In this document: positions 13,354-20,893 of the stretch, in pieces | How positions within the stretch are numbered: position 1 is the first letter of the stretch | Layout: every line of letters begins with the position of its first letter | Source of the DNA: Nitrospinaceae bacterium | Lineage (GTDB): Bacteria > Nitrospinota > Nitrospinia > Nitrospinales > Nitrospinaceae | DNA length: 64,000 nt | Reading direction: 5' to 3' | Assembly (NCBI GenBank): GCA_965223665.1 | Contig: OZ245011.1 | Coordinates: 640,001-704,000 of the forward strand | Made by a program: the position numbers and the translations under genes | Notes under the pieces: model-generated | The model's database searches: none | What the model saw: the letters and a program-made list of their open reading frames with translations, nothing else | What the model was told of the DNA's origin: nothing

Positions 13354-14304
13354 ATGTTTCGTCCGGAGATAAAAGTATTAGATTGTACCATCCGCGATGG
13401 CGGGTTAATGAATAAGCACCAATTCACCCCAGAAGTAGTTAGAGGGGTATATAAGGCATGTAATGATGCTGGAGTCGATTATATTGAACTGGGATACAAA
13501 GCTGATGACTCACAGTTCAGTCGGGATGAATTTGGTCCAATGAAGTTTTGCTCGGAAGAGGATATCGGGGCTGTAATTAATGGAATTGAAAAGAAAAGTA
13601 AGCTTTCCGTAATGGTGGATATTGGCAGAGTGGATCCGAGTTCAATTGTTCCAAAAAGTGAAAGTCATGTCGATATGATGCGCGTAGCGTCTTATGTAAA
13701 AGATATTGATAAGGCAATTGATTTGGTAAATCAATTACATGCTAAAGGATATGAGACCACAATTAATATCATGGCGGTTTCTCATGCCAGGGAGCGGGAA
13801 CTCGACGAGGCACTTGAACAGGTTGAAAAGGAAAGCCAGGCCGACGTGATTTATCTGGTAGATAGTTTTGGAGCCTTATATTCCGAACAAATTGCTTATT
13901 TGGCTAAAAAATATAAACAAGCGATGCCAAGCAAAGAAATAGGGATTCACGCACATAATAATCAGCAGCTTGCTTTTGCTAATACAATAGAAAGCATAAT
14001 TAATAGAATTAATTATTTAGATGGAACTATCTATGGTATTGGCCGTGCAGCTGGAAATTGTCCCTTAGAGTTGCTTTTAGGATTTTTGAAAAATCCAAAG
14101 TATGACCTTCGTCCAATTTTAGATATTATCGGCAAAGAATTTTTAAAAATTCGAGACCAAATTGAATGGGGATATTATATTCCTTATATGATCACCGGAG
14201 TTTTAGATTTACATCCGCGTGCAGGTATGGCGCTATTAAACTCTGAAGATCGAGACGGCTTTCTTGATTTTTATGAAAAATTAACTAACGAAGCTAACGT
14301 CTAA
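13354..14304 (+). CDS. DRE-TIM (HMGL-like) metallo-aldolase, 4-hydroxy-2-oxovalerate aldolase-like catalytic domain
   Basis: DCTIRDGG, GIHAHNN, GRAAGNCPLE. Confidence 0.82.
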   Translation: MFRPEIKVLDCTIRDGGLMNKHQFTPEVVRGVYKACNDAGVDYIELGYKADDSQFSRDEFGPMKFCSEEDIGAVINGIEKKSKLSVMVDIGRVDPSSIVPKSESHVDMMRVASYVKDIDKAIDLVNQLHAKGYETTINIMAVSHARERELDEALEQVEKESQADVIYLVDSFGALYSEQIAYLAKKYKQAMPSKEIGIHAHNNQQLAFANTIESIINRINYLDGTIYGIGRAAGNCPLELLLGFLKNPKYDLRPILDIIGKEFLKIRDQIEWGYYIPYMITGVLDLHPRAGMALLNSEDRDGFLDFYEKLTNEANV

Positions 14305-14305
14305 A

Positions 14306-14968
14306 TTGGAACTGCCATTCTCTAATTTTGATTCTACTCAATTTGAAAAATTACCCGTACTGGGAATTATTCGAGGAATTAAAAGGGATGCTTTAAAAGG
14401 AGTCCTAAACTCTGCCCTAGAGTCAGGGTTAAAGCATTTAGAAATTACCTTAAATACCCGGAATTCGTTCGAATTAATTTCGGAAGCGGTTAATTTGTTT
14501 GACGACACCCTTTGCGTAGGGGCGGGTACAGTAATTACTAAGAAAGAAGCGGAGTTAGCTGTTTCAGCGGGAGCAAAATTTTTAGTAAGTCCTACTTTAA
14601 ATAATGAGGTTGCTTCTTACTGTAAACAAAATAATATTTCTTATTTTCCCGGTGCCTTAACACCTACAGAGATTGAAGCAGCCTGGAATTCAGGGGCTCA
14701 AATGGTCAAAGTGTTTCCTGCAACTGCAATGGGTCCAAAATATTTTAAAGAAATTAAAGGACCGTTTTCCAACATCAAATTAATGGCTGTAGGGGGGGTA
14801 AAAAAGGAAAATATTGCAGATTATTTTAAATCTGGAGCATCGGCTGTTGCAGTAGGAGGTTCTATTTTTAGTGTAGAACGAATGAATAATGAAGGATTTT
14901 CTTCCATAAAAGAAGATTTAAGTGAAATTTTATTTGCAGTTAAAGATTTTTTGAATACAATTAGGTGA
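14306..14968 (+). CDS. eda: KDPG/KHG aldolase
   Basis: EITLNT, VGAGTV, PGALTPTE, VKVFPA, AVGGV. Confidence 0.9.
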   Translation: MELPFSNFDSTQFEKLPVLGIIRGIKRDALKGVLNSALESGLKHLEITLNTRNSFELISEAVNLFDDTLCVGAGTVITKKEAELAVSAGAKFLVSPTLNNEVASYCKQNNISYFPGALTPTEIEAAWNSGAQMVKVFPATAMGPKYFKEIKGPFSNIKLMAVGGVKKENIADYFKSGASAVAVGGSIFSVERMNNEGFSSIKEDLSEILFAVKDFLNTIR

Positions 14969-14998
14969 AATTTGTTTCTAAGTTTATCTGGGGGGAAC

Positions 14999-15265
14999 AT
15001 GAGTTCTGATTTTTTGAAAAATTTTATGAATTTTGGTGATGAAGAAAGATTTGCGCGAATTTGTGAAGGATTAGAAGAAATAATCCGTGAAGCAGAAGGA
15101 AATTCTGAAGAGAAAAAAGTATCTGATTTAGAAATTATGCAAGCACTGGATTTTGTGGGTTTTAATCTTTTTCGAGATTCTTGGGAAGATTATAAAAAAA
15201 TGGATTTCAATAAAGATTTGAGCTCATTAAATCAAAATAATAAAGAACGTCATTTAATTCATTAA
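14999..15265 (+). CDS. Small acidic hypothetical protein
   Basis: ATG 14999 preceded by GGGGGA; same frame as ORF 14972..15265. Confidence 0.6.
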   Translation: MSSDFLKNFMNFGDEERFARICEGLEEIIREAEGNSEEKKVSDLEIMQALDFVGFNLFRDSWEDYKKMDFNKDLSSLNQNNKERHLIH

Positions 15266-15281
15266 TACCTCTCCTGAAAAA

Positions 15282-16850
15282 TTAAACCTCATTATTTGCA
15301 ATTTTGTCAAACTCCTCAATACGTTCCATTAGATGGTGCATCTTTTTATCAATGGTCGTAATGTGCTTTCCAATCTTTTCGATTTCTTTTTTTTCCTTAG
15401 TTAAATAAACCGTTTTACACTTTGCTAAATGAGTATTGATATGTTCAATCATGTCATGAATTTCGTGGCTTTCAATTGAAAGGTCATCAGCAGTTTCTTT
15501 TATATTTATAATTGTGTCCACCGCTTTTTCTTCAGTTAATTTTTCTTTTACTAATTTGGAACGCGCGATTTTTCTACGATACAATTCCAAAGAAATCCCT
15601 GAGAAAATAAGAAAAATTAAACCAAATGTAGCAACATCAACTAACAAATAGACATAATCACCAAAAAAACGGCCCGTATGAATTTCTGTCATTAGTTTAA
15701 CTAAATCCATAGTTTTATGAACACCGGCCTTTTCTTCAATGCTTGAAGCCAGCGATGTCTTTAACCATTTCTTCCCCTTATTCATGGAGTAAACTAAATC
15801 ACTAGAAGTCCCCAAAAATAGAAAAAGAAAATCTTTGGTGGAATCTTGAAAAGTATAGATATGATTCAATGTTTGATAATTAGAGGACTCTTTAAATAGG
15901 TTTTGCCAGCTGTCTCCTCCATTTTTTGTGAAATACAATTTATCTTTAGTAATAGCAAATAGAGACGATGGATTTTGTGGATCTGAAACAATTTTGTAAA
16001 CTGGGATATTTTTTATTGTCGCGTCTTGTTCCCAGGTAATACCACGATTGAAAGATTTATAAATACCCCTTTGGGTCGCTAAGTAAATAAATTCTGGGTC
16101 TGTATCTAATGAAAGTAGAGAATTTGGAACGGGAACAACTTTATCCCATTTTTTTTTCCAATCACCCTCATTTAAGTTTTTCTTATATACTCCATTAACA
16201 TTACCTGCAAAAATAGATTCGCCTTTAGAAGAAATTTGAATAAATTTGATTTCAGTTTCATCCTCAAGTTTTTTTTCAATAGGAGAGGGGTCCCACATCT
16301 CCCCGCCATCTTCTGAAACAAATACACCTCCTTTTGTACCGGCATAAATGATTTCAGGATCATTGGGATGAATAATTATGTCTACAATATCAATATTGCT
16401 TAATCCAGCTGATTCTTCAAACCAATCAGTCCAATGTATTCCTCCGTCTTCCGAAAGATAAATTCCTTTAGAAGTGCCTGCATAAATAACAGAAGGATTG
16501 TTAGGTGAAATCGCAATGGTTTGGATATTATTGTTTTTCAATCCATCGTGAAGTTGAATCCAGGTTCTACCTAAATCCTTTGAATGAAATAATCCTGAAT
16601 TAGTTCCTACATATATTTGCAAAGGATTGACATGGGATACAGCAATGCTTTGAACATTTAAATCATTCCTTGTCATCTTAAAATATTTTTCAGGAAGATA
16701 TTCAGCGGTCACATCGATCTTCTCCAACTCTAAAGAATCCCGATGCATTAGTAGAATTCCACTAATAGAAAGGATGAGGAAAAAAATAGCGCAGACAAAC
16801 CCTACCCATTTATGAAATATTCTAGAAGATTTGAAAAATCGAATATTCAA
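15282..16850 (-). CDS. PepSY-associated TM protein with BNR/Asp-box beta-propeller and His/Cys-rich C-terminal tail
   Basis: FHKWVG...SGILLMH TM1; six SxDxGxxW-like repeats; EIHTGRFFG before TM2. Confidence 0.8.
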   Translation of the reverse strand: MNIRFFKSSRIFHKWVGFVCAIFFLILSISGILLMHRDSLELEKIDVTAEYLPEKYFKMTRNDLNVQSIAVSHVNPLQIYVGTNSGLFHSKDLGRTWIQLHDGLKNNNIQTIAISPNNPSVIYAGTSKGIYLSEDGGIHWTDWFEESAGLSNIDIVDIIIHPNDPEIIYAGTKGGVFVSEDGGEMWDPSPIEKKLEDETEIKFIQISSKGESIFAGNVNGVYKKNLNEGDWKKKWDKVVPVPNSLLSLDTDPEFIYLATQRGIYKSFNRGITWEQDATIKNIPVYKIVSDPQNPSSLFAITKDKLYFTKNGGDSWQNLFKESSNYQTLNHIYTFQDSTKDFLFLFLGTSSDLVYSMNKGKKWLKTSLASSIEEKAGVHKTMDLVKLMTEIHTGRFFGDYVYLLVDVATFGLIFLIFSGISLELYRRKIARSKLVKEKLTEEKAVDTIINIKETADDLSIESHEIHDMIEHINTHLAKCKTVYLTKEKKEIEKIGKHITTIDKKMHHLMERIEEFDKIANNEV

Positions 16851-19045
16851 TGCAATTCCTTTTCTTGAGTAGCAATAGGCTGCGAAATTCGATCGTAATC
16901 GTCTTTAAGCTGGTTCTCGAAATATTTCACCTGATCAAATAATTCATGAACTTTCTCATCAATTTCTTTTAAATGCTCTGAAAGTTCCTTTAAGTCGTGA
17001 TCCTGAGTATCCTTTAAAAAGATTTCACAACGTTTCGCATGATGGGAAATATGCTCTACTAAATCATGAACAACCGTAATATTCTTTTGAATTTGATTGG
17101 CTTCAACTTTTAAATCCTGGGTTGCTTTTTCCATTTTAATTCCAAAGGTATAAATTAAAGCTCCAGCATATGCTATTAAAAGTACCATTTGCCCAATAAA
17201 AGTTTCCCAAGTTGGATACATTCCCAGCCATGGAATCTCAGGTGCGAAATTGGCTACGGTCATGGAAATCTGGTTCCCCATCTGTAATTCATGAAGACCT
17301 TTTCCCATAAACACAAAAGCAAGAAAATATAGAAAAACACTGGTAAAAGCGAAAAACCATTTCACAGGTATTCGCAAGCCAATTTTATTTATTAAAAAAT
17401 ATACAACTGCGAGGAGAAGACAACCTGCGAAAAAACCAGGAACAATACCCCCAGATTGTTCCCCAGCATATAAATAAAGGGCTTTATAAAAGAGTATAGT
17501 TTCGAAGCCTTCTCGATACACAGATAAAAAAGCAACTGTTCCAAGGGTAAATGCACTACCAGTTGAAACGGCTTGTTGCATTTTCCCTGTTATATAACTT
17601 TGCCAACGAGCGGTTTCAATTTTTGAAACTAACCAATAGCTCACGTAAAACAAAACCACCATAGCTATTAACATGATCCAGCCTTCCATAAGTTCCTGGC
17701 TAGCTGTACTGATTTTTAATATTTCCTTGAGAATATATGCGGTTATGAAACTTCCAATTATTCCAATGCCCACTCCCATATATACAGATTTGAGCTTATC
17801 TCTATTTTTTGATTTAATTAAAAATGTAATTAAAGCCGCCACAATAAGGATAGCCTCAAAGCCTTCTCTCACAATTATTGATAAAGACTGAATAAAAAGT
17901 CCGAAGAATCCAATCTTTTGAGTTAAAATCTTTTGAGCTTCATCCAAATCAGTTTGTATATCACCAACTATTTTTTGAACCAAGTCAATTGAGGCATTCC
18001 TCTTCATTTCTGCTTGAAGACGACCGAATAACGATTCTAATCTCAGTCCTAGCTCTTTACGCTTTGTTAATAGAGGTGATTCAAGTTTTTCGTATGTCAA
18101 ATATGCATCAAAGGATTTTTCTGATGCTGCCTTATTATCTCCACTCTTAAATGTTTCTAAGCTATCTGCTAGAAGTGTATTTACTTCCTTGAAAATTGAA
18201 TTGACTTTATCTCTTCCGGAGGCACTTTCGATTTTATTTTCGGGATTGGAAACAATTAAAGGAATCTCAACGTTGGAATTAGAAAAGGTTCGTATAAAAT
18301 ACGTTAAATCCCAAATTTCATTTTCTTTGAATTGGTCTCCCCAGCCCACCATGGCTGTTCCGGCTATGCCTACATTAATAATTTGGAAGTTATCATAGGG
18401 TTTTGAAAGTTTATTACCTGTAATATTGGGATCAGCTAAAACTGCTGGTTTGGGATCTAATTGTTCTGCGATTGGCCCGTCTCCCTGCCCGGATACTCCA
18501 TGGCAGATTTTGCAATTATTCATGTACAAATTTCTGCCATTTTCTAACGAAACCGGCTCGGTGGGAGTTTTACTCAATTCCACGCCAAATGCTTTAAGAA
18601 TATCTGTATTTAAGCTGTTAACTTTTTGATTGATTTCTAAAGGGTCTGCTTTAGCTAAAATGGTTTTCTTTAAGCTTTGAAATTTTGCTTCAAATTTTTC
18701 TGTTAAGTCTTTAGCAATATTTTGGGAGATTGAATGGAAACGATCATTAGCTTGACTAAGAAAAACCTGGCTTTCTTCATACTCGGCCGCATTGATTACT
18801 TTTCCATTTGAAATTCCTTCCGCGTACTCTTTATTAACAATATTCATCATCATTACTATTTTTTTGACTTGAGAATTTGTTTTATTTAAAGGTGTTTGGG
18901 CAATGGAAGGTGAAGAAAAAGTTAAGCCTGTTATCCCCATTAAAGATAAAAATATTAGGATTATTCTATAACTTCTTAAAAAAGTGGCCAGGCAGGGCCT
19001 AAAACTAACCTTATTTATTTGCACCAAAAATCTCCCGAAAAGCAA
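16847..19045 (-). CDS. Cytochrome c-FTR1 family iron permease fusion (PbrT/EfeU-like); exact start uncertain
   Basis: CKICH heme motif; two REGFE motifs; GKGLHELQ; GMYPTWET. Confidence 0.9.
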   Translation of the reverse strand: MLFGRFLVQINKVSFRPCLATFLRSYRIILIFLSLMGITGLTFSSPSIAQTPLNKTNSQVKKIVMMMNIVNKEYAEGISNGKVINAAEYEESQVFLSQANDRFHSISQNIAKDLTEKFEAKFQSLKKTILAKADPLEINQKVNSLNTDILKAFGVELSKTPTEPVSLENGRNLYMNNCKICHGVSGQGDGPIAEQLDPKPAVLADPNITGNKLSKPYDNFQIINVGIAGTAMVGWGDQFKENEIWDLTYFIRTFSNSNVEIPLIVSNPENKIESASGRDKVNSIFKEVNTLLADSLETFKSGDNKAASEKSFDAYLTYEKLESPLLTKRKELGLRLESLFGRLQAEMKRNASIDLVQKIVGDIQTDLDEAQKILTQKIGFFGLFIQSLSIIVREGFEAILIVAALITFLIKSKNRDKLKSVYMGVGIGIIGSFITAYILKEILKISTASQELMEGWIMLIAMVVLFYVSYWLVSKIETARWQSYITGKMQQAVSTGSAFTLGTVAFLSVYREGFETILFYKALYLYAGEQSGGIVPGFFAGCLLLAVVYFLINKIGLRIPVKWFFAFTSVFLYFLAFVFMGKGLHELQMGNQISMTVANFAPEIPWLGMYPTWETFIGQMVLLIAYAGALIYTFGIKMEKATQDLKVEANQIQKNITVVHDLVEHISHHAKRCEIFLKDTQDHDLKELSEHLKEIDEKVHELFDQVKYFENQLKDDYDRISQPIATQEKELH

Positions 19046-19061
19046 TAAACAGACATGTATT

Positions 19062-19080
19062 AATAATGAGAATTGTTATC
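19062..19080. promoter_or_regulatory. Fur box-like operator
   Basis: AATAATGAGAATTGTTATC, 15/19 match to GATAATGATAATCATTATC, abutting the -10 of the FTR1 promoter. Confidence 0.75.
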
Positions 19081-19109
19081 AATATATTCTCAACCATATT
19101 AATTGTCAA
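19081..19109 (-). promoter_or_regulatory. Putative sigma70 promoter of the FTR1-PepSY operon
   Basis: Minus strand TTGACA-17 nt-TATATT. Confidence 0.75.
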
Positions 19110-19363
19110 TAAGTAAGAGTTTATCCTATACAATCATAGATACTATTTGAGACAACTTATTCAATTTTTTGGCTTTTCGTTATTTTTCCATTAAAAATTA
19201 TCTTAATAACCTGGAATTTATCTTGAAACCTTATTATTTTAATTTCTTAATAATTTCGATTTGTAATAAACTCATTTATTATTAAAGAATTAAATTAATA
19301 GGTTTAGCTAAGTAATTTATTAAATTTAAATACCTAAATAATTGATACTAAAAAGATAAAATT

Positions 19364-20893
19364 ATGAAGTTAGGTGAAGCCCAGAATGCTCTGAATGAAA
19401 AGTTAAAAGAATTATCCCATTTAGGAAATGTGGTGGGCCTGATGCATTGGGATCAGGAAGTTATGATGCCTGCAGGCGCAACAAATTCTAGAGCCCAGCA
19501 ACTTTCTCTGTTAGCGGGGATTTATCATGAAAAGCTGACCAGTCCAATAATAAATGACTTATTGAATCAAATTGAAGAAGGTTCTTTGGACCAATTAAAT
19601 GCATATGAAATATGTAATATTAAGGAAGCCCGTAGGAATTATGATAGAGCAATAAAAGTACCCAAAGATTTAGTTCAAAAAATAGCAGAATTGAGTTCCA
19701 GGGGACATAAAATATGGGCTAATGCCCGTGAGAATAATAAATTTGGGGAGTTTGCTCCTTGTTTAAAAGAGTTAGTAGAACTCAAAAAACAATGGGCCGG
19801 ATACATAGATCCTGAAAAACCTGCATATGATATAAATATCGATGATTTTGAAAGAGGGTTTAGCATTAAAATAATTGACCCTTTATTTCAAAAATTAAAA
19901 GAAGAACTGATTCCCCTAATCCAAAATATACAAGAAAGTTCTTACTCACCTGATAGGTCATTTTTAAATAAAAAGTACCCTATTACAAAACAAGAATCTC
20001 TGGGTAAACAAATTGCTAAAGAAATAGGGTTCGATTTCAATTTTGGAAGAATGGATACCTCCGTACATCCTTTTTGTGGAGGGGGAGACTACACAGATGT
20101 GAGGATTACTACACGTTATAGTGAAGATGACTTCATTGAATCTTTATACGCTGTAATTCATGAAACAGGTCATGGATTGTATGAACAGGGGAGAAATAAA
20201 AAATATGCGGGTTTGCCTGTTTCTGAAGCGCTTTCTATGGGAATGCATGAATCCCAATCCTTGTTTTGGGAAAAATTGATTGGAAGAAAAAAAGCCTTTA
20301 TTGTTAATTATTTAGATCTTTTTAATTTAACCTTTGCTAGAACATTTGATGGAGTAAGTCCTCAACAATTTTATGAGGCAATAAATATATGTGAACCATC
20401 ATTAATTCGAGTAGATGCGGATGAGGTGACCTATCCACTCCATATAATATTACGTTATGAAATTGAAAAAGGTCTATTTGATGGAACTATGGAAGTTGAT
20501 GAATTACCAGAAATATGGAACCAAAAAATGCAAGATTATTTGGGAATTCGACCACCCAGTGATACTTTAGGAGTGTTGCAGGATGTTCACTGGAGTGGAG
20601 GAAGTTTCGGATATTTTCCTTCGTATACTTTAGGCGCTTTGTTTGCTGCCCAATTTTATCAAACCATAGCGAATGAAATCCCAGAAACAAACCAAATAAT
20701 TGAAGAAGGCAATTTTGAGGTGATAAAAAATTGGCTTAATGAAAAAATTCATTCACAAGGAATCCTTTATTCTACGGATGAACTATTAAATAAGGTGACG
20801 GGACAAAGTCTAAATCCAGAAATTTTTATATCTTACCTAAAGAAAAAATATCAGGAAATTTATAAACTTGATCTTAATTCCTTCCCAAATTAA
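19364..20893 (+). CDS. Carboxypeptidase, M32 (Taq) family
   Basis: HPF, DVRITT, HETGHGLYEQ, HESQS, IRVDADE, QDVHW, YFPSYTLG. Confidence 0.95.
   Translation: MKLGEAQNALNEKLKELSHLGNVVGLMHWDQEVMMPAGATNSRAQQLSLLAGIYHEKLTSPIINDLLNQIEEGSLDQLNAYEICNIKEARRNYDRAIKVPKDLVQKIAELSSRGHKIWANARENNKFGEFAPCLKELVELKKQWAGYIDPEKPAYDINIDDFERGFSIKIIDPLFQKLKEELIPLIQNIQESSYSPDRSFLNKKYPITKQESLGKQIAKEIGFDFNFGRMDTSVHPFCGGGDYTDVRITTRYSEDDFIESLYAVIHETGHGLYEQGRNKKYAGLPVSEALSMGMHESQSLFWEKLIGRKKAFIVNYLDLFNLTFARTFDGVSPQQFYEAINICEPSLIRVDADEVTYPLHIILRYEIEKGLFDGTMEVDELPEIWNQKMQDYLGIRPPSDTLGVLQDVHWSGGSFGYFPSYTLGALFAAQFYQTIANEIPETNQIIEEGNFEVIKNWLNEKIHSQGILYSTDELLNKVTGQSLNPEIFISYLKKKYQEIYKLDLNSFPN

Follow-up and report, generated by a model that had tools for sequence, protein, structure and literature searches.

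FTR1-family iron permeases have as their hallmark two RExxE motifs in transmembrane (TM) helices, and Ftr1p, from whose literature this is known, has seven TM helices and a cytoplasmic C-terminus. PepSY_TM proteins act in the periplasm as metal reductases that depend on haem (PMC13038864; PMC8238504; bioRxiv 10.1101/2021.01.28.428567), the family is tied to iron uptake and Fur regulation (PMC8238504; PMC13038864), and FoxB has four TM helices, two haems held via conserved histidines, and periplasmic PepSY domains (PMC13038864; FoxB preprint). The Fe(II) transporter FeoB bears a metal-binding, Cys/His-rich C-terminal region at its cytoplasmic end, as described in the abstract of PMC10647171. 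Here we analyse two overlapping genes whose products, an FTR1 permease and a PepSY_TM protein, share a C-terminal tail. They lie in a window, the whole stretch of DNA analysed, of 64,000 nt from Nitrospinaceae bacterium (GCA_965223665.1, contig OZ245011.1, positions 640,001-704,000, forward strand), and their features are collected in Table 1.

Table 1. Features of the two-gene locus, in window coordinates
Feature	Position	Strand	Basis or remark
Sigma-70-like promoter candidate (TTGACA, 17-nt spacer, TATATT) upstream of operon	19081..19109	-	consensus match only
Fur-box-like palindrome, directly following the -10 hexamer	19062..19080	.	19-mer consensus match
Gene 1, cytochrome c/FTR1 permease with tail	16847..19045	-	732 aa counted from TTG 19045
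Cytochrome c domain, residues 161-256	18278..18565	-	Pfam stretch 168-253
CxxCH, residues 178-182	18500-18514	-	within cytochrome c domain
FTR1 membrane core, residues 380-635	17141..17908	-	hydropathy segments
FTR1 tail domain, residues 636-722	16880..17140	-	BLASTP against PepSY tail; AF2 hairpin
FTR1 tail conserved core, residues 660-709	16919-17068	-	27/50 positions invariant
TTGA overlap, gene 1 stop / gene 2 TTG start	16847..16850	-	
Gene 2, 2-TM PepSY_TM/propeller protein with tail	15282..16850	-	522 aa
TM1, residues 16-34	16749..16805	-	hydropathy 2.73
Periplasmic propeller, residues ~41-380	15711..16730	-	Pfam matches
TM2, residues 402-420	15591..15647	-	hydropathy
PepSY tail domain, residues 448-514	15309..15509	-	homology to FTR1 tail
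PepSY tail conserved core, residues 465-514	15309-15458	-	

The two membrane proteins and their iron context

The gene 1 protein consists, in order, of a signal peptide, a periplasmic c-type cytochrome, an FTR1 permease of probably seven TM segments and a cytoplasmic tail. It belongs to the FTR1 family (PF03239, 91.7 bits against a curated cut-off of 25.3, E = 6.8e-26), with two REGFE motifs (residues 393-397 and 511-515) of which R393, E394, G395, E397 and R511-E515 show no variation among 41 orthologues. The cytochrome matches Cytochrom_C (9.6e-10) and Cytochrome_CBB3 (7.5e-09), PF00034 and PF13442 scoring 40.1 and 36.2 bits, each above its cut-off; a CxxCH is present, and C178, C181, H182 and M232 are invariant in the same 41 orthologues. 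The protein is not an EfeU equivalog, because it reaches 105.9 bits (E = 3.9e-32) with the EfeU/Ftr1 model NF041756, below the equivalog cut-off of 255. Six segments of the FTR1 core exceed the hydropathy threshold, and the seventh (~496-518, with the second REGFE) falls under it. Since a periplasmic c-type cytochrome is followed by what are probably seven TM segments, the C-terminus would lie inside, and the charge bias is compatible with this orientation. As to the start of gene 1, an in-frame GTG at 19024, preceded by GGGAGA (19031-19036), appears more plausible than the TTG at 19045.

The TTGA overlap noticed in the first-pass annotation is present (...GCATTGAATATT...), with the gene 1 stop TGA at 16847-16849 and the gene 2 start TTG at 16848-16850. 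This TTG start is supported by the 34 N-terminal residues gained with it, which match both PepSY_TM and the orthologue consensus; the Pfam PepSY_TM stretch covers residues 12-41. The gene 2 protein has two TM helices, a BNR/Ycf48-like beta-propeller on the periplasmic side and a cytoplasmic tail, and its Pfam matches (Sortilin-Vps10, 1.2e-19; PSII_BNR, 3.5e-11; PepSY_TM, 1.1e-08) all exceed their cut-offs, PepSY_TM (PF03929) with 35.7 bits against 28.8. A newer Pfam release adds PF25852 (DUF6242_C) on the orthologues, a family associated with the propeller and not with the tail. With two TM helices and a propeller, the protein falls outside the FoxB type as defined by four TM helices, two haems and PepSY domains. 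TM1 has H13, within the consensus 'FHKW', at its cytoplasmic edge and the invariant H36 at its periplasmic edge, and an invariant 'EIHTGRFFG' (H391) stands before TM2; because these histidines are conserved, a dimer of the gene 2 protein could rebuild the haem sites.

Upstream of the operon, the top-scoring Fur-box-like site of the window lies directly against the top-scoring promoter-like site. The latter agrees with the consensus at 11 of 12 positions and ranks first among 13 sites in 14900-19400. The former scores 15/19 on the forward and 14/19 on the reverse strand against a 19-mer Fur consensus, and it is the top match and the sole one of 15/19 in all 64 kb. Fur may thus bind at 19062-19080, which suggests an iron-regulated context for the FTR1 gene. 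Among distant relatives, one tail-bearing FTR1 gene (L016) adjoins Fur and P19 genes, and another tail-bearing FTR1 (P0233) is fused to a P19 domain.

A shared and conserved tail domain

The two tails are paralogous to each other, being copies of one domain. The ungapped alignment of the two 50-residue cores (residues 660-709 of 732 and 465-514 of 522), whose translations agree with the segments first quoted for 16919-17068 and 15309-15458 on the reverse strand, contains 14 identities on recount, as originally reported, with a BLOSUM62 score of 103; shuffles of one tail score 43 at most, and 0 of 20000 reach either 103 or 14 identities. When the two whole proteins are compared by BLASTP, the tail pair is the sole significant segment (E = 9e-10, 19/75 identities), and the match is lengthened by ~20 residues upstream across a 7-residue gap. 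Both window tails match the tail profile with all motif positions present (E = 1.5e-34 and 3.1e-31).

The nine potential ligands named at the outset (H1, D2, E5, H6, H10, C14, H32, D37 and H41) are all invariant in an alignment of 14 tails from both families, and the proposed check, whether the His and Cys residues are kept in orthologues, comes out positive for the His, Cys, Asp and Glu positions of both families. In the best 120 of 232 FTR1-type matches, H1, H6, H10, C14, H32, D37 and H41 are each found in 120/120, E5 in 119 and D2 in 116. In the PepSY-type orthologues (77 anchored of 78, P0159 being left out), H1 and E5 occur in 77/77, H10 and C14 in 76, H32, D37 and H41 in 75, D2 in 74 and H6 in 73. 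Across the whole family, counted on 49 domain rows drawn from 45 representatives, the order is H10 (46/46), H32 (43/47), H1 (41/44), H41 (41/47), D37 (40/47), H6 (39/45), C14 (38/46) and E5 (37/45), and D2 is variable (28/44). C14 is replaced by Ser in two genomes (G056 and G069) and by Ala in the FTR1 protein of G002, and it is missing from three short PepSY_TM proteins (P0240, P0241 and P0243). The family motif reads I-H-[DE]-x2-E-H-[IL]-x2-H-x3-C ... H-[IL]-x2-[IL]-D-x-K-x-H-x-[LV] within a hairpin of ~65-80 residues.

The tail core is moreover the most conserved segment in each of the two proteins. In the FTR1 protein its top residues have a mean frequency of 0.90 and 27/50 positions are invariant, against 0.83 and 98/256 in the membrane core; in the PepSY protein it is 0.82, against 0.60 in the propeller. 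In helix 1 of the FTR1 family almost all heptad positions are conserved, the outward b, c and f included, which metal binding alone does not explain and which points to further protein contacts.

Hydropathy and charge place both tails in the cytoplasm, as the first-pass annotation had it; the PepSY protein is N-in with two TM segments, and its tail starts with a Lys/Arg-rich stretch. The helical hairpin expected there is also what AF2 predicts for an 83-aa FTR1 tail construct (helices 2-38 and 44-82, pLDDT 80.7). On a helical wheel the hydrophobic pattern is heptad-like, and each ligand takes the same angle, measured from the hydrophobic moment, in the two families. On one side are H6 (about -110 degrees), H10 (about -70), C14 (about -30) and H32 (-72); on the other are H1 (about +110), E5 (about +150), D37 (+67) and H41 (+107). 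If the loop spans residues 39-43, as in the AF2 prediction, H32 would stand level with H6/H10 and D37 level with H1/E5, a placement built on secondary-structure boundaries and an ideal wheel. The tandem copies found in transglutaminase-like proteins are predicted as four long helices (pLDDT 70.9, pTM 0.54), which superpose on long four-helix bundles such as Maquette-3 (6z0c; Z 18.2, rmsd 2.8, 160 residues aligned), single-chain ROP (Z 15.0) and the di-iron proteins YtfE (5fnn, Z 13.9) and ScdA (9j47, Z 12.7), where VIA Z values below about 13 are common among helical bundles; Foldseek with this model returned nothing at E <= 0.001. The single hairpin gives weak matches to hairpins of a generic kind, among them ROP, DHp and ESAT-6, and PDB sequence searches with the tail gave coiled-coil constructs alone, with weak E values. 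No characterised domain matching the tail was found in Pfam, NCBIfam, the PDB or the literature. The initial remark that no such tail is known in canonical FTR1 or PepSY-TM proteins agrees with this: no FTR1 or PepSY_TM model covers it, and tail-less FTR1 orthologues exist.

Distribution of the tail

A profile search found no more than two tail copies in the window's own genome and no more than 46 matches among 1.84 billion representative proteins. A Pfam scan of 24 of the 46 shows mostly FTR1 or PepSY_TM proteins, together with two soluble transglutaminase-like proteins that carry two tandem copies of the tail. One of the tandem-copy proteins comes from a genome bin labelled Thermoplasmata archaeon. 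The neighbours of one tandem-copy gene (L026) have no link to iron, and the tail module is therefore not specific to iron uptake.

Among genomes of the phylum with at least two matches, 53 of 55 have the tail pair 1.5-1.7 kb apart on one strand. In the window's order, all 17 single-match genomes hold the FTR1-type tail and none the PepSY-type alone, so the PepSY tail is never seen there without the FTR1 tail. The reverse is seen in at least five genomes (G025, G053, G056, G058 and G069; 94-97% complete, G025 a single contig), which have a conserved FTR1 tail and lack the PepSY gene at the locus; a search of these entire genomes with the whole PepSY protein recovered the FTR1 tail alone, plus a weak BNR match in G025 (E = 3.3e-4). 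The PepSY gene is also absent at the locus in G080. Tail-less cytochrome c/FTR1 genes of 622-629 aa occupy the same syntenic locus in three genomes (G092, G100 and G012). Like the small numbers of copies and matches, these genes fit a tail that serves as an accessory module. In more distant lineages, three loci (L014, L015 and L017) carry the tail on a PepSY_TM protein with no FTR1 gene within the stretch read, and in another (L041) a short tail-bearing PepSY_TM gene lies two genes ahead of an FTR1 gene.

Possible functions and comparison with known systems

We consider it about evenly balanced whether the tail is a previously undescribed, rare cytoplasmic hairpin module on reductive iron-uptake proteins that probably binds metal and senses or handles iron. 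It would be a single cytoplasmic domain of ~65-80 residues, predicted as a hairpin of two antiparallel helices, and its conserved polar residues may form two clusters on opposite flanks of the hydrophobic seam: H6, H10 and C14 of helix 1 with H32 of helix 2 (cluster A), and H1 and E5 of helix 1 with D37 and H41 of helix 2 (cluster B). Metal, with Fe(II) as the natural candidate, would most likely be bound there at the inner membrane face. The two carriers, under Fur-type regulation, would be a cytochrome c/FTR1 permease and a propeller-headed PepSY_TM protein, putatively a haem-b-type reductase, and the tail may report or receive cytoplasmic iron and so tune the activity of its membrane carrier. 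Two hairpins probably pack as a four-helix bundle, in a homodimer or possibly in an FTR1-PepSY pair where both are present. That the tail binds a metal, which metal this is, that hairpins bundle and that the tail regulates its carrier are all inferred; His-rich amphipathic helices may be conserved for reasons besides metal binding. A bolder and rather unlikely version holds that an iron- or redox-sensing bundle physically couples a transmembrane haem-b ferric reductase, a dimer of 2-TM PepSY_TM proteins, to FTR1, the paired hairpins binding Fe(II), or a bridging cluster on the H10-x3-C14 of two hairpins, so that occupancy gates both the passage of electrons to the periplasm and iron entry. If true, it would mean a built-in post-translational feedback on reductive iron uptake, faster than Fur, and a module that soluble transglutaminase-like enzymes have taken over as a tandem sensor.

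The tails might instead heterodimerise into a four-helix bundle that fixes the PepSY_TM reductase to FTR1, with metal being merely structural. The gene overlap, the constant spacing of the pair in 53 of 55 genomes, the 17 single-match genomes, the tandem form modelled as one four-helix bundle and the L041 neighbourhood are all consistent with such docking; however, the five genomes above keep the FTR1 tail with no PepSY gene genome-wide (G080 lacks it at the locus), and L014, L015 and L017 have the tail-bearing PepSY_TM protein without FTR1 in the stretch read. Moreover, a 2-TM PepSY_TM protein should self-dimerise to rebuild the 4-TM di-haem core of FoxB, as described in PMC13038864 and the FoxB preprint, and this would bring two copies of the same tail next to each other. 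We regard docking as quite unlikely. Because five related genomes retain the FTR1 tail without a PepSY orthologue, the heterodimer cannot be the tail's sole reason; of the original proposal that the tails hetero- or homo-dimerise, obligate heterodimerisation is weakened by these genomes and by other lineages in which PepSY_TM is the only tail carrier in the stretches read. Very unlikely in our estimate is an entry point for electrons, in which paired hairpins hold a bis-His haem or an Fe-S cluster on two H10-x3-C14 and feed the PepSY_TM haem-b chain. H10, conserved in 46/46, sits at -65 to -72 degrees, close to the hydrophobic face, and the structure that best matches the tandem model is a maquette designed to bind haem, but that match is generic for long four-helix bundles and Foldseek found nothing at its threshold. 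To our knowledge, FTR1 does not pass electrons through the membrane, yet it has the best-conserved tail; each hairpin has a single Cys, which several members have lost, and the domain also occurs on soluble transglutaminase-like proteins. On the other side, PMC8238504 reports that PepSY_TM reductases move electrons through the membrane via two haems and that some relatives (1077 genes) have a fused cytoplasmic NAD-binding domain in the tail's place.

The hairpin could also be a metal-free coiled coil, a stalk or oligomerisation element with its His, Asp and Glu in hydrogen-bond and salt-bridge networks, and this would fit the coiled-coil constructs found in the PDB, the generic hairpins returned for the single copy and the heptad-like pattern. 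Against it, the five His and the single Cys, Asp and Glu persist in proteins with different carriers and otherwise ~25-30% identity, and the i/i+4 spacing at matching levels on both helices would be typical of metal sites and uncommon in plain coiled coils. We take this explanation to be very improbable. Hemerythrin has a ligand set of five His, one Glu and one Asp, and the conserved residues of the tail have the same composition, with HxxxE, HxxxH and HxxxxD spacings; YtfE and ScdA are also among the fold matches. Nonetheless, the first-pass idea of a split hemerythrin/ferritin-like di-iron domain, in which a pair of hairpins would restore a hemerythrin-homologous bundle, is not supported: neither tail matches PF01814 or ferritin-like families at E <= 1 in Pfam, aligning the tail profile with ten Nitrospinota hemerythrin domains in hhalign yields a probability of 0.07% (E = 0.7), the motifs lie on two helices and not four, and the fold Z scores are in the range common for helical bundles. 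Such homology is hardly credible.

Returning to the metal-binding hairpin module, its nearest counterparts differ from it in various ways. Hemerythrin-like di-iron domains (PF01814; YtfE/ScdA) resemble it in ligand composition and, if hairpins pair, in the four-helix bundle, but the tail's ligands are on two helices per chain and the Pfam and hhalign results separate the two. ROP, histidine-kinase DHp, EsxA/B and designed haem or metal maquettes have a like predicted fold without sequence relationship, and the maquette resemblance, as a generic helical-bundle match, is uninformative on function. With FTR1/EfeU-type permeases (Ftr1p-Fet3p, EfeUOB, P19-cFtr1 and FtrABCD) the gene 1 protein has in common the Pfam FTR1 match, the two RExxE motifs, the multi-TM core and the suggested iron-regulated context, with relatives beside or fused to P19; it adds an N-terminal periplasmic c-type cytochrome, a fusion already known under the NCBI name 'cytochrome c/FTR1 family iron permease', and a C-terminal hairpin tail of ~90 residues beyond the FTR1 models. 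The gene 2 protein, a putative reductase, shares with FoxB, FpvG, VciB and CrpH the PepSY_TM match and the conserved histidines at membrane boundaries, whereas it has two TM helices to FoxB's four, a BNR/Ycf48-like propeller in place of the PepSY domains, and the added cytoplasmic tail. Finally, the C-terminal region of FeoB, likewise at the cytoplasmic end of an iron importer and with no expected sequence similarity to the tail, is by description short, unstructured and Cys-rich, whereas the tail here is long, conserved and a predicted helical hairpin.

Homology and conservation of the two tails

The two 50-residue stretches at the C-termini of a cytochrome c/FTR1 permease (gene 1) and a PepSY_TM/propeller protein (gene 2) lie where the first-pass annotation had placed them, and they align without gaps at 14 identities in 50 positions. 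Their proposed common ancestry holds: the alignment score is 103, compared with a maximum of 43 among shuffled sequences, and none of 20000 shuffles reaches 103. In a BLASTP comparison of the full proteins, the tail segment is the only significant one (E = 9e-10). Moreover, the nine residues proposed as metal ligands (numbered within the 50-residue core) are invariant in an alignment of 14 tails, which comprises the two window tails, five FTR1-type and seven PepSY-type tails; the only other invariant columns are I7, K39 and L43. The same residues are largely retained in wider samples, and the departures in PepSY-type tails include two aberrant proteins, P0199 and P0200.

Retention of the candidate ligands in tail sequences (FTR1-type, best 120 of 232 matches; PepSY-type, 77 anchorable of 78; whole family, 49 domain rows from 45 proteins)
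Residue	FTR1-type	PepSY-type	Whole family
H1	120/120	77/77	41/44
D2	116/120	74/77	28/44
E5	119/120	77/77	37/45
H6	120/120	73/77	39/45
H10	120/120	76/77	46/46
C14	120/120	76/77	38/46
H32	120/120	75/77	43/47
D37	120/120	75/77	40/47
H41	120/120	75/77	41/47

In both protein types, conservation is highest in the tail core. Among 41 FTR1-type orthologues, the mean top-residue frequency is 0.90 in the tail core (27 of 50 positions invariant) and 0.83 in the membrane core (98 of 256), and among 40 PepSY-type orthologues it is 0.82 in the tail core and 0.60 in the propeller. In helix 1 of the FTR1 family nearly all heptad positions are fixed, beyond the ligands; such conservation, on all sides of the FTR1 tail, points to additional contacts. 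FTR1-type and PepSY-type tails from two different genomes of one genus (g23) share 17 of 52 residues, similar to the window pair, and this comparison gives no sign of within-lineage homogenisation of the two types. A tree built from 39 of the 49 domain rows (58 columns; rows that lacked a context label or had over 20 gaps were excluded) separates FTR1 and transglutaminase types plus P0220, P0221 and P0222 from Nitrospinota PepSY and short PepSY tails with a UFBoot of 85. Most deeper nodes have UFBoot values of 16-65; support in the tree falls short of what dating the duplication would need, and no conclusion was drawn from it.

The operon and the predicted placement of the tails

The stop codon of gene 1 overlaps the TTG start of gene 2 in the sequence TTGA. 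Named homologues of both genes are Nitrospinota throughout, and the architecture of gene 1 already has an NCBI name, 'cytochrome c/FTR1 family iron permease'. The product of gene 2 has two transmembrane segments only, with a BNR/Ycf48-like propeller in between (Sortilin-Vps10, 1.2e-19). The promoter-like site is the best in its region, and the 19-mer that abuts it matches a Fur-box consensus better than any other in the 64-kb window; together they suggest iron-dependent repression of the operon.

Features of the operon in the window and of FMN_bind/PepSY_TM gene pairs in distant Nitrospinota-class genomes
Feature	Sequence	Position	Strand	Details
Gene 1	Window	16847-19045	minus	732 aa counted from TTG; signal peptide, c-type cytochrome, FTR1 core
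Gene 1 cytochrome domain	Window	CxxCH, residues 178-182		Pfam Cytochrom_C 9.6e-10
Gene 1 FTR1 permease core	Window			Pfam 6.8e-26; two REGFE motifs
Gene 2	Window	15282-16850	minus	522 aa; PepSY_TM 35.7 bits (cut-off 28.8)
Promoter-like site	Window	19081-19109		Upstream of operon; TTGACA, 17-nt spacer, TATATT; 11/12
Fur-box-like 19-mer	Window	19062-19080		Abuts promoter-like site; 15/19
FMN_bind gene, then tail-bearing PepSY_TM	L014	5995-7219
FMN_bind gene, then tail-bearing PepSY_TM	L015	5718-6921
FMN_bind gene, then tail-bearing PepSY_TM	L041	261-1485
FMN_bind gene, then tail-bearing PepSY_TM	L017	2243-4488

For gene 1, an in-frame GTG at 19024, preceded by GGGAGA, is a likelier start than the TTG, and gene 2 likely starts at the TTG at 16850. 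The public gene models appear too short at their 5' ends in both cases (positions 19022-19045 and 16746-16850 of the window). In the database, gene 1 (P0003, 697 aa) starts from an internal Met, so that its signal peptide is missing, and gene 2 (P0123, 488 aa) starts from M35 and lacks both TM1 and the PepSY_TM match. The operon is flanked by an aldolase-like gene pair (13354-14968) and an M32-type carboxypeptidase-like gene (19364-20893), both named from their translations.

Simple hydropathy and charge rules place both tails in the cytoplasm, in agreement with the earlier proposal. The cytochrome domain of gene 1 has to lie in the periplasm and, given this, Lys/Arg counts together with hydropathy put the FTR1 C-terminus on the cytoplasmic side; similarly, the Lys/Arg-rich N-terminus of gene 2, its two transmembrane segments and the beginning of its tail (YRRKIARSK) predict a cytoplasmic PepSY tail. 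The helical hairpin that had been proposed is likewise predicted by AlphaFold2 from the 14-tail alignment, with antiparallel helices at 2-38 and 44-82 of 83 residues (pLDDT 80.7). On an ideal helical wheel, H6, H10, C14 and H32 occupy one flank of the hydrophobic seam and H1, E5, D37 and H41 the opposite flank, and the angles of both groups are the same in the FTR1-type and PepSY-type families. Judging from the predicted loop position, H32 would be level with H6 and H10, and D37 with H1 and E5.

Distribution of the tail and states of the locus

We searched 1.84 billion representative proteins with the 14-tail profile and obtained 46 matches at E <= 0.001, 24 of them at E <= 1e-10; a Pfam scan covered 24 of the 46. 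The tail occurs in a cytochrome c/FTR1 protein (P0213), in FTR1 proteins without cytochrome (P0212, P0229, P0234, P0235), in a P19-FTR1 fusion of 1246 aa (P0233), in PepSY_TM proteins with propeller (P0205, P0209, P0214, P0216, P0221, P0222) and in short two-TM PepSY_TM proteins of about 210-220 aa (P0240, P0241, P0243), among which one cluster, that of P0240, bears a Spirochaetota name. Two soluble transglutaminase-like proteins (P0215, P0217) carry two tandem copies at their N-termini, and the other matches are small proteins or fragments. One of the 46, P0219 (1035 aa, eight matched stretches), appears to be a false positive caused by low complexity. The window's own genome holds exactly two copies.

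Two FTR1 proteins from metagenomes, P0233 and P0235 (919 aa), are very long: each has an N-terminal periplasmic part that is large and helical, and each ends in the same tail, while P0233 also contains a P19-like Iron_transport domain. In the periplasmic part of both proteins, a segment of the form 'EY..AV..G.I.....EY.E..IFL' is similar to residues ~73-97 of gene 1. With the tandem protein P0215 as query, metagenomes yielded 248 pattern matches, none of which was confirmed, and a scan of the genome collection with the query A4 returned a single locus, L026. There, the gene for a tandem-tail transglutaminase-like protein (178-1344) is on a contig of 4.5 kb from a bin labelled Thermoplasmata archaeon; neither of its neighbours, of 440 and 398 aa, looks iron-related.

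Within Nitrospinota, the profile matches 80 of 120 genomes, and FTR1 was found in 96. At least two matches occur in 55 genomes, and in 53 of these they lie 1.5-1.7 kb apart on the same strand; the exceptions are G063, with matches on two contigs, and G090, with matches far apart, which was left out owing to runs of N inside the operon. In G022 (C1:2345146-2345381) the PepSY tail matches as two overlapping pieces in different frames, which indicates a frameshift or a sequencing error. Single matches occur in 25 genomes, and all 17 of those within the window's order are FTR1-type; no PepSY tail without an FTR1 tail was seen in this order. In all six single-match genomes examined (G025, G053, G056, G058, G069, G080) no PepSY gene follows the tailed FTR1 gene, and in five of the six, FTR1 is followed directly by the aldolase genes that in the window lie downstream of gene 2. 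A whole-protein search for the PepSY orthologue in five PepSY-less genomes (94-97% complete) found only the FTR1 tail and one weak BNR match. C14 is Ser (HAKRSMAF) in the FTR1 tails of PepSY-less G056 and G069 (L020 5782-7950, L021 2462-4612) and stays Cys in three other such genomes.

Moreover, the syntenic position in G092, G100 and G012 holds a cytochrome c/FTR1 gene whose product of 622-629 aa ends right after TM7, with no PepSY gene, and G021 has a split, tail-less cytochrome c/FTR1. One phylum thus holds three states of the locus (both proteins tailed, tailed FTR1 alone, and tail-less FTR1), so the tail is an accessory module, optional within the phylum. The flanks are syntenic across the phylum in all three states. 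Outside the order, tail-bearing PepSY_TM genes directly follow FMN_bind genes, and no FTR1 gene was found in the stretches read of L014, L015 and L017. The PepSY_TM protein beside FMN_bind is of the short two-TM form, except for the propeller form in L017. In L041 the second gene after PepSY_TM, beyond a 95-aa ORF, is an FTR1 gene truncated where the contig stops, and in L016 a tail-bearing FTR1 gene is flanked by Fur and P19 genes.

Searches for a known domain returned no family for the tail. Pfam and NCBIfam gave only noise on both tails, and newer Pfam annotation of FTR1-type homologues lists FTR1 and cytochrome families only. PF25852, found on PepSY-type orthologues, was considered as a name for the tail and rejected; it is DUF6242_C according to the Atlas, and because it also occurs on BNR/propeller proteins without PepSY_TM it is probably part of the propeller. 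In the PDB, the best sequence matches were GCN4-fusion coiled-coil constructs for the FTR1 tail (E = 0.0022 and weaker) and a helical stretch of UvrB for the 14-tail profile (E = 0.0035), both taken as noise; Foldseek with the single-hairpin model gave no PDB match at E <= 0.001, and the ESM Atlas gave no informative family for the FTR1 tail (top score 0.84). A full-text search of the main texts of the papers covered found no account of such a tail and no paper with both 'PepSY_TM' and 'FTR1'; Supplementary file 1 of PMC8238504, a listing of PepSY-like gene clusters, might include such loci. As far as these searches reach, the tail domain and its sharing by both carriers are undescribed, and the carriers themselves are of known kinds.

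Possible roles of the tail and relation to known systems

These results show that the tail is a new, rare and strongly constrained domain, a cytoplasmic hairpin by prediction, with a conserved His/Cys/carboxylate pattern, and that it sits mainly on the two membrane components of reductive iron uptake. Its most likely role is metal binding, probably of Fe(II), so that iron would be sensed or received at the inner face of the membrane, and the hairpins would pair into four-helix bundles; we regard the chances of this reading as evenly balanced. The first-pass annotation had suggested a hemerythrin/ferritin-like bundle, and kinship with hemerythrin finds no support, since profile-profile comparison with ten hemerythrin domains from related genomes gave a probability of 0.07%. 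The tail could otherwise be a device for docking the two proteins to each other. Its presence on soluble transglutaminase-like proteins as well, one of them without adjoining iron genes, favours a sensor or binding module of general use over a specific docking device.

The heterodimer of the two tails that had been proposed may still form where both proteins are present, but it is not the sole reason for the tail, because the FTR1 tail persists without the PepSY protein. Complex prediction for the FTR1 tail (636-722) and the PepSY tail (440-522) gave ipSAE values of 0.18 and 0.24 against a mark of 0.32, without controls, and speaks neither for nor against binding. Pairing of like hairpins is also conceivable. 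The core of FoxB consists of four transmembrane helices with two haems, according to PMC13038864 and the FoxB preprint. The two-TM PepSY_TM unit of gene 2 corresponds to half of this core, so it should form a dimer, in which two copies of its tail would come to lie next to each other. For the tandem copies that open P0215, the model consists of four long helices (pLDDT 70.9, pTM 0.54, from a six-row alignment). This model superposes on Maquette-3 (Z 18.2, rmsd 2.8, 160 residues) and on single-chain ROP (Z 15.0), matches that are generic for long four-helix bundles, and its best Foldseek match in the PDB has E = 1.9e-3, with none at E <= 0.001.

To our knowledge, both the post-translational regulation of bacterial FTR1-type permeases and the cytoplasmic connection of PepSY_TM reductases are poorly understood, and here both protein types end, on their cytoplasmic side, in one small, ligand-rich, highly conserved domain. 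This bears on iron acquisition in Nitrospinota, which are marine nitrite oxidisers. The three locus states provide natural comparison strains, tail-less and partner-less, and a soluble tail fragment of ~80 residues should be easily expressed, with clear ligand mutants. Should the tail prove to be a metal sensor, the few known cytoplasmic regulatory domains on metal importers would gain a new family. In distant Nitrospinota-class genomes, the pairs of FMN_bind and tailed PepSY_TM genes fit the flavinylation-associated 'PepSY-like systems' of PMC8238504.
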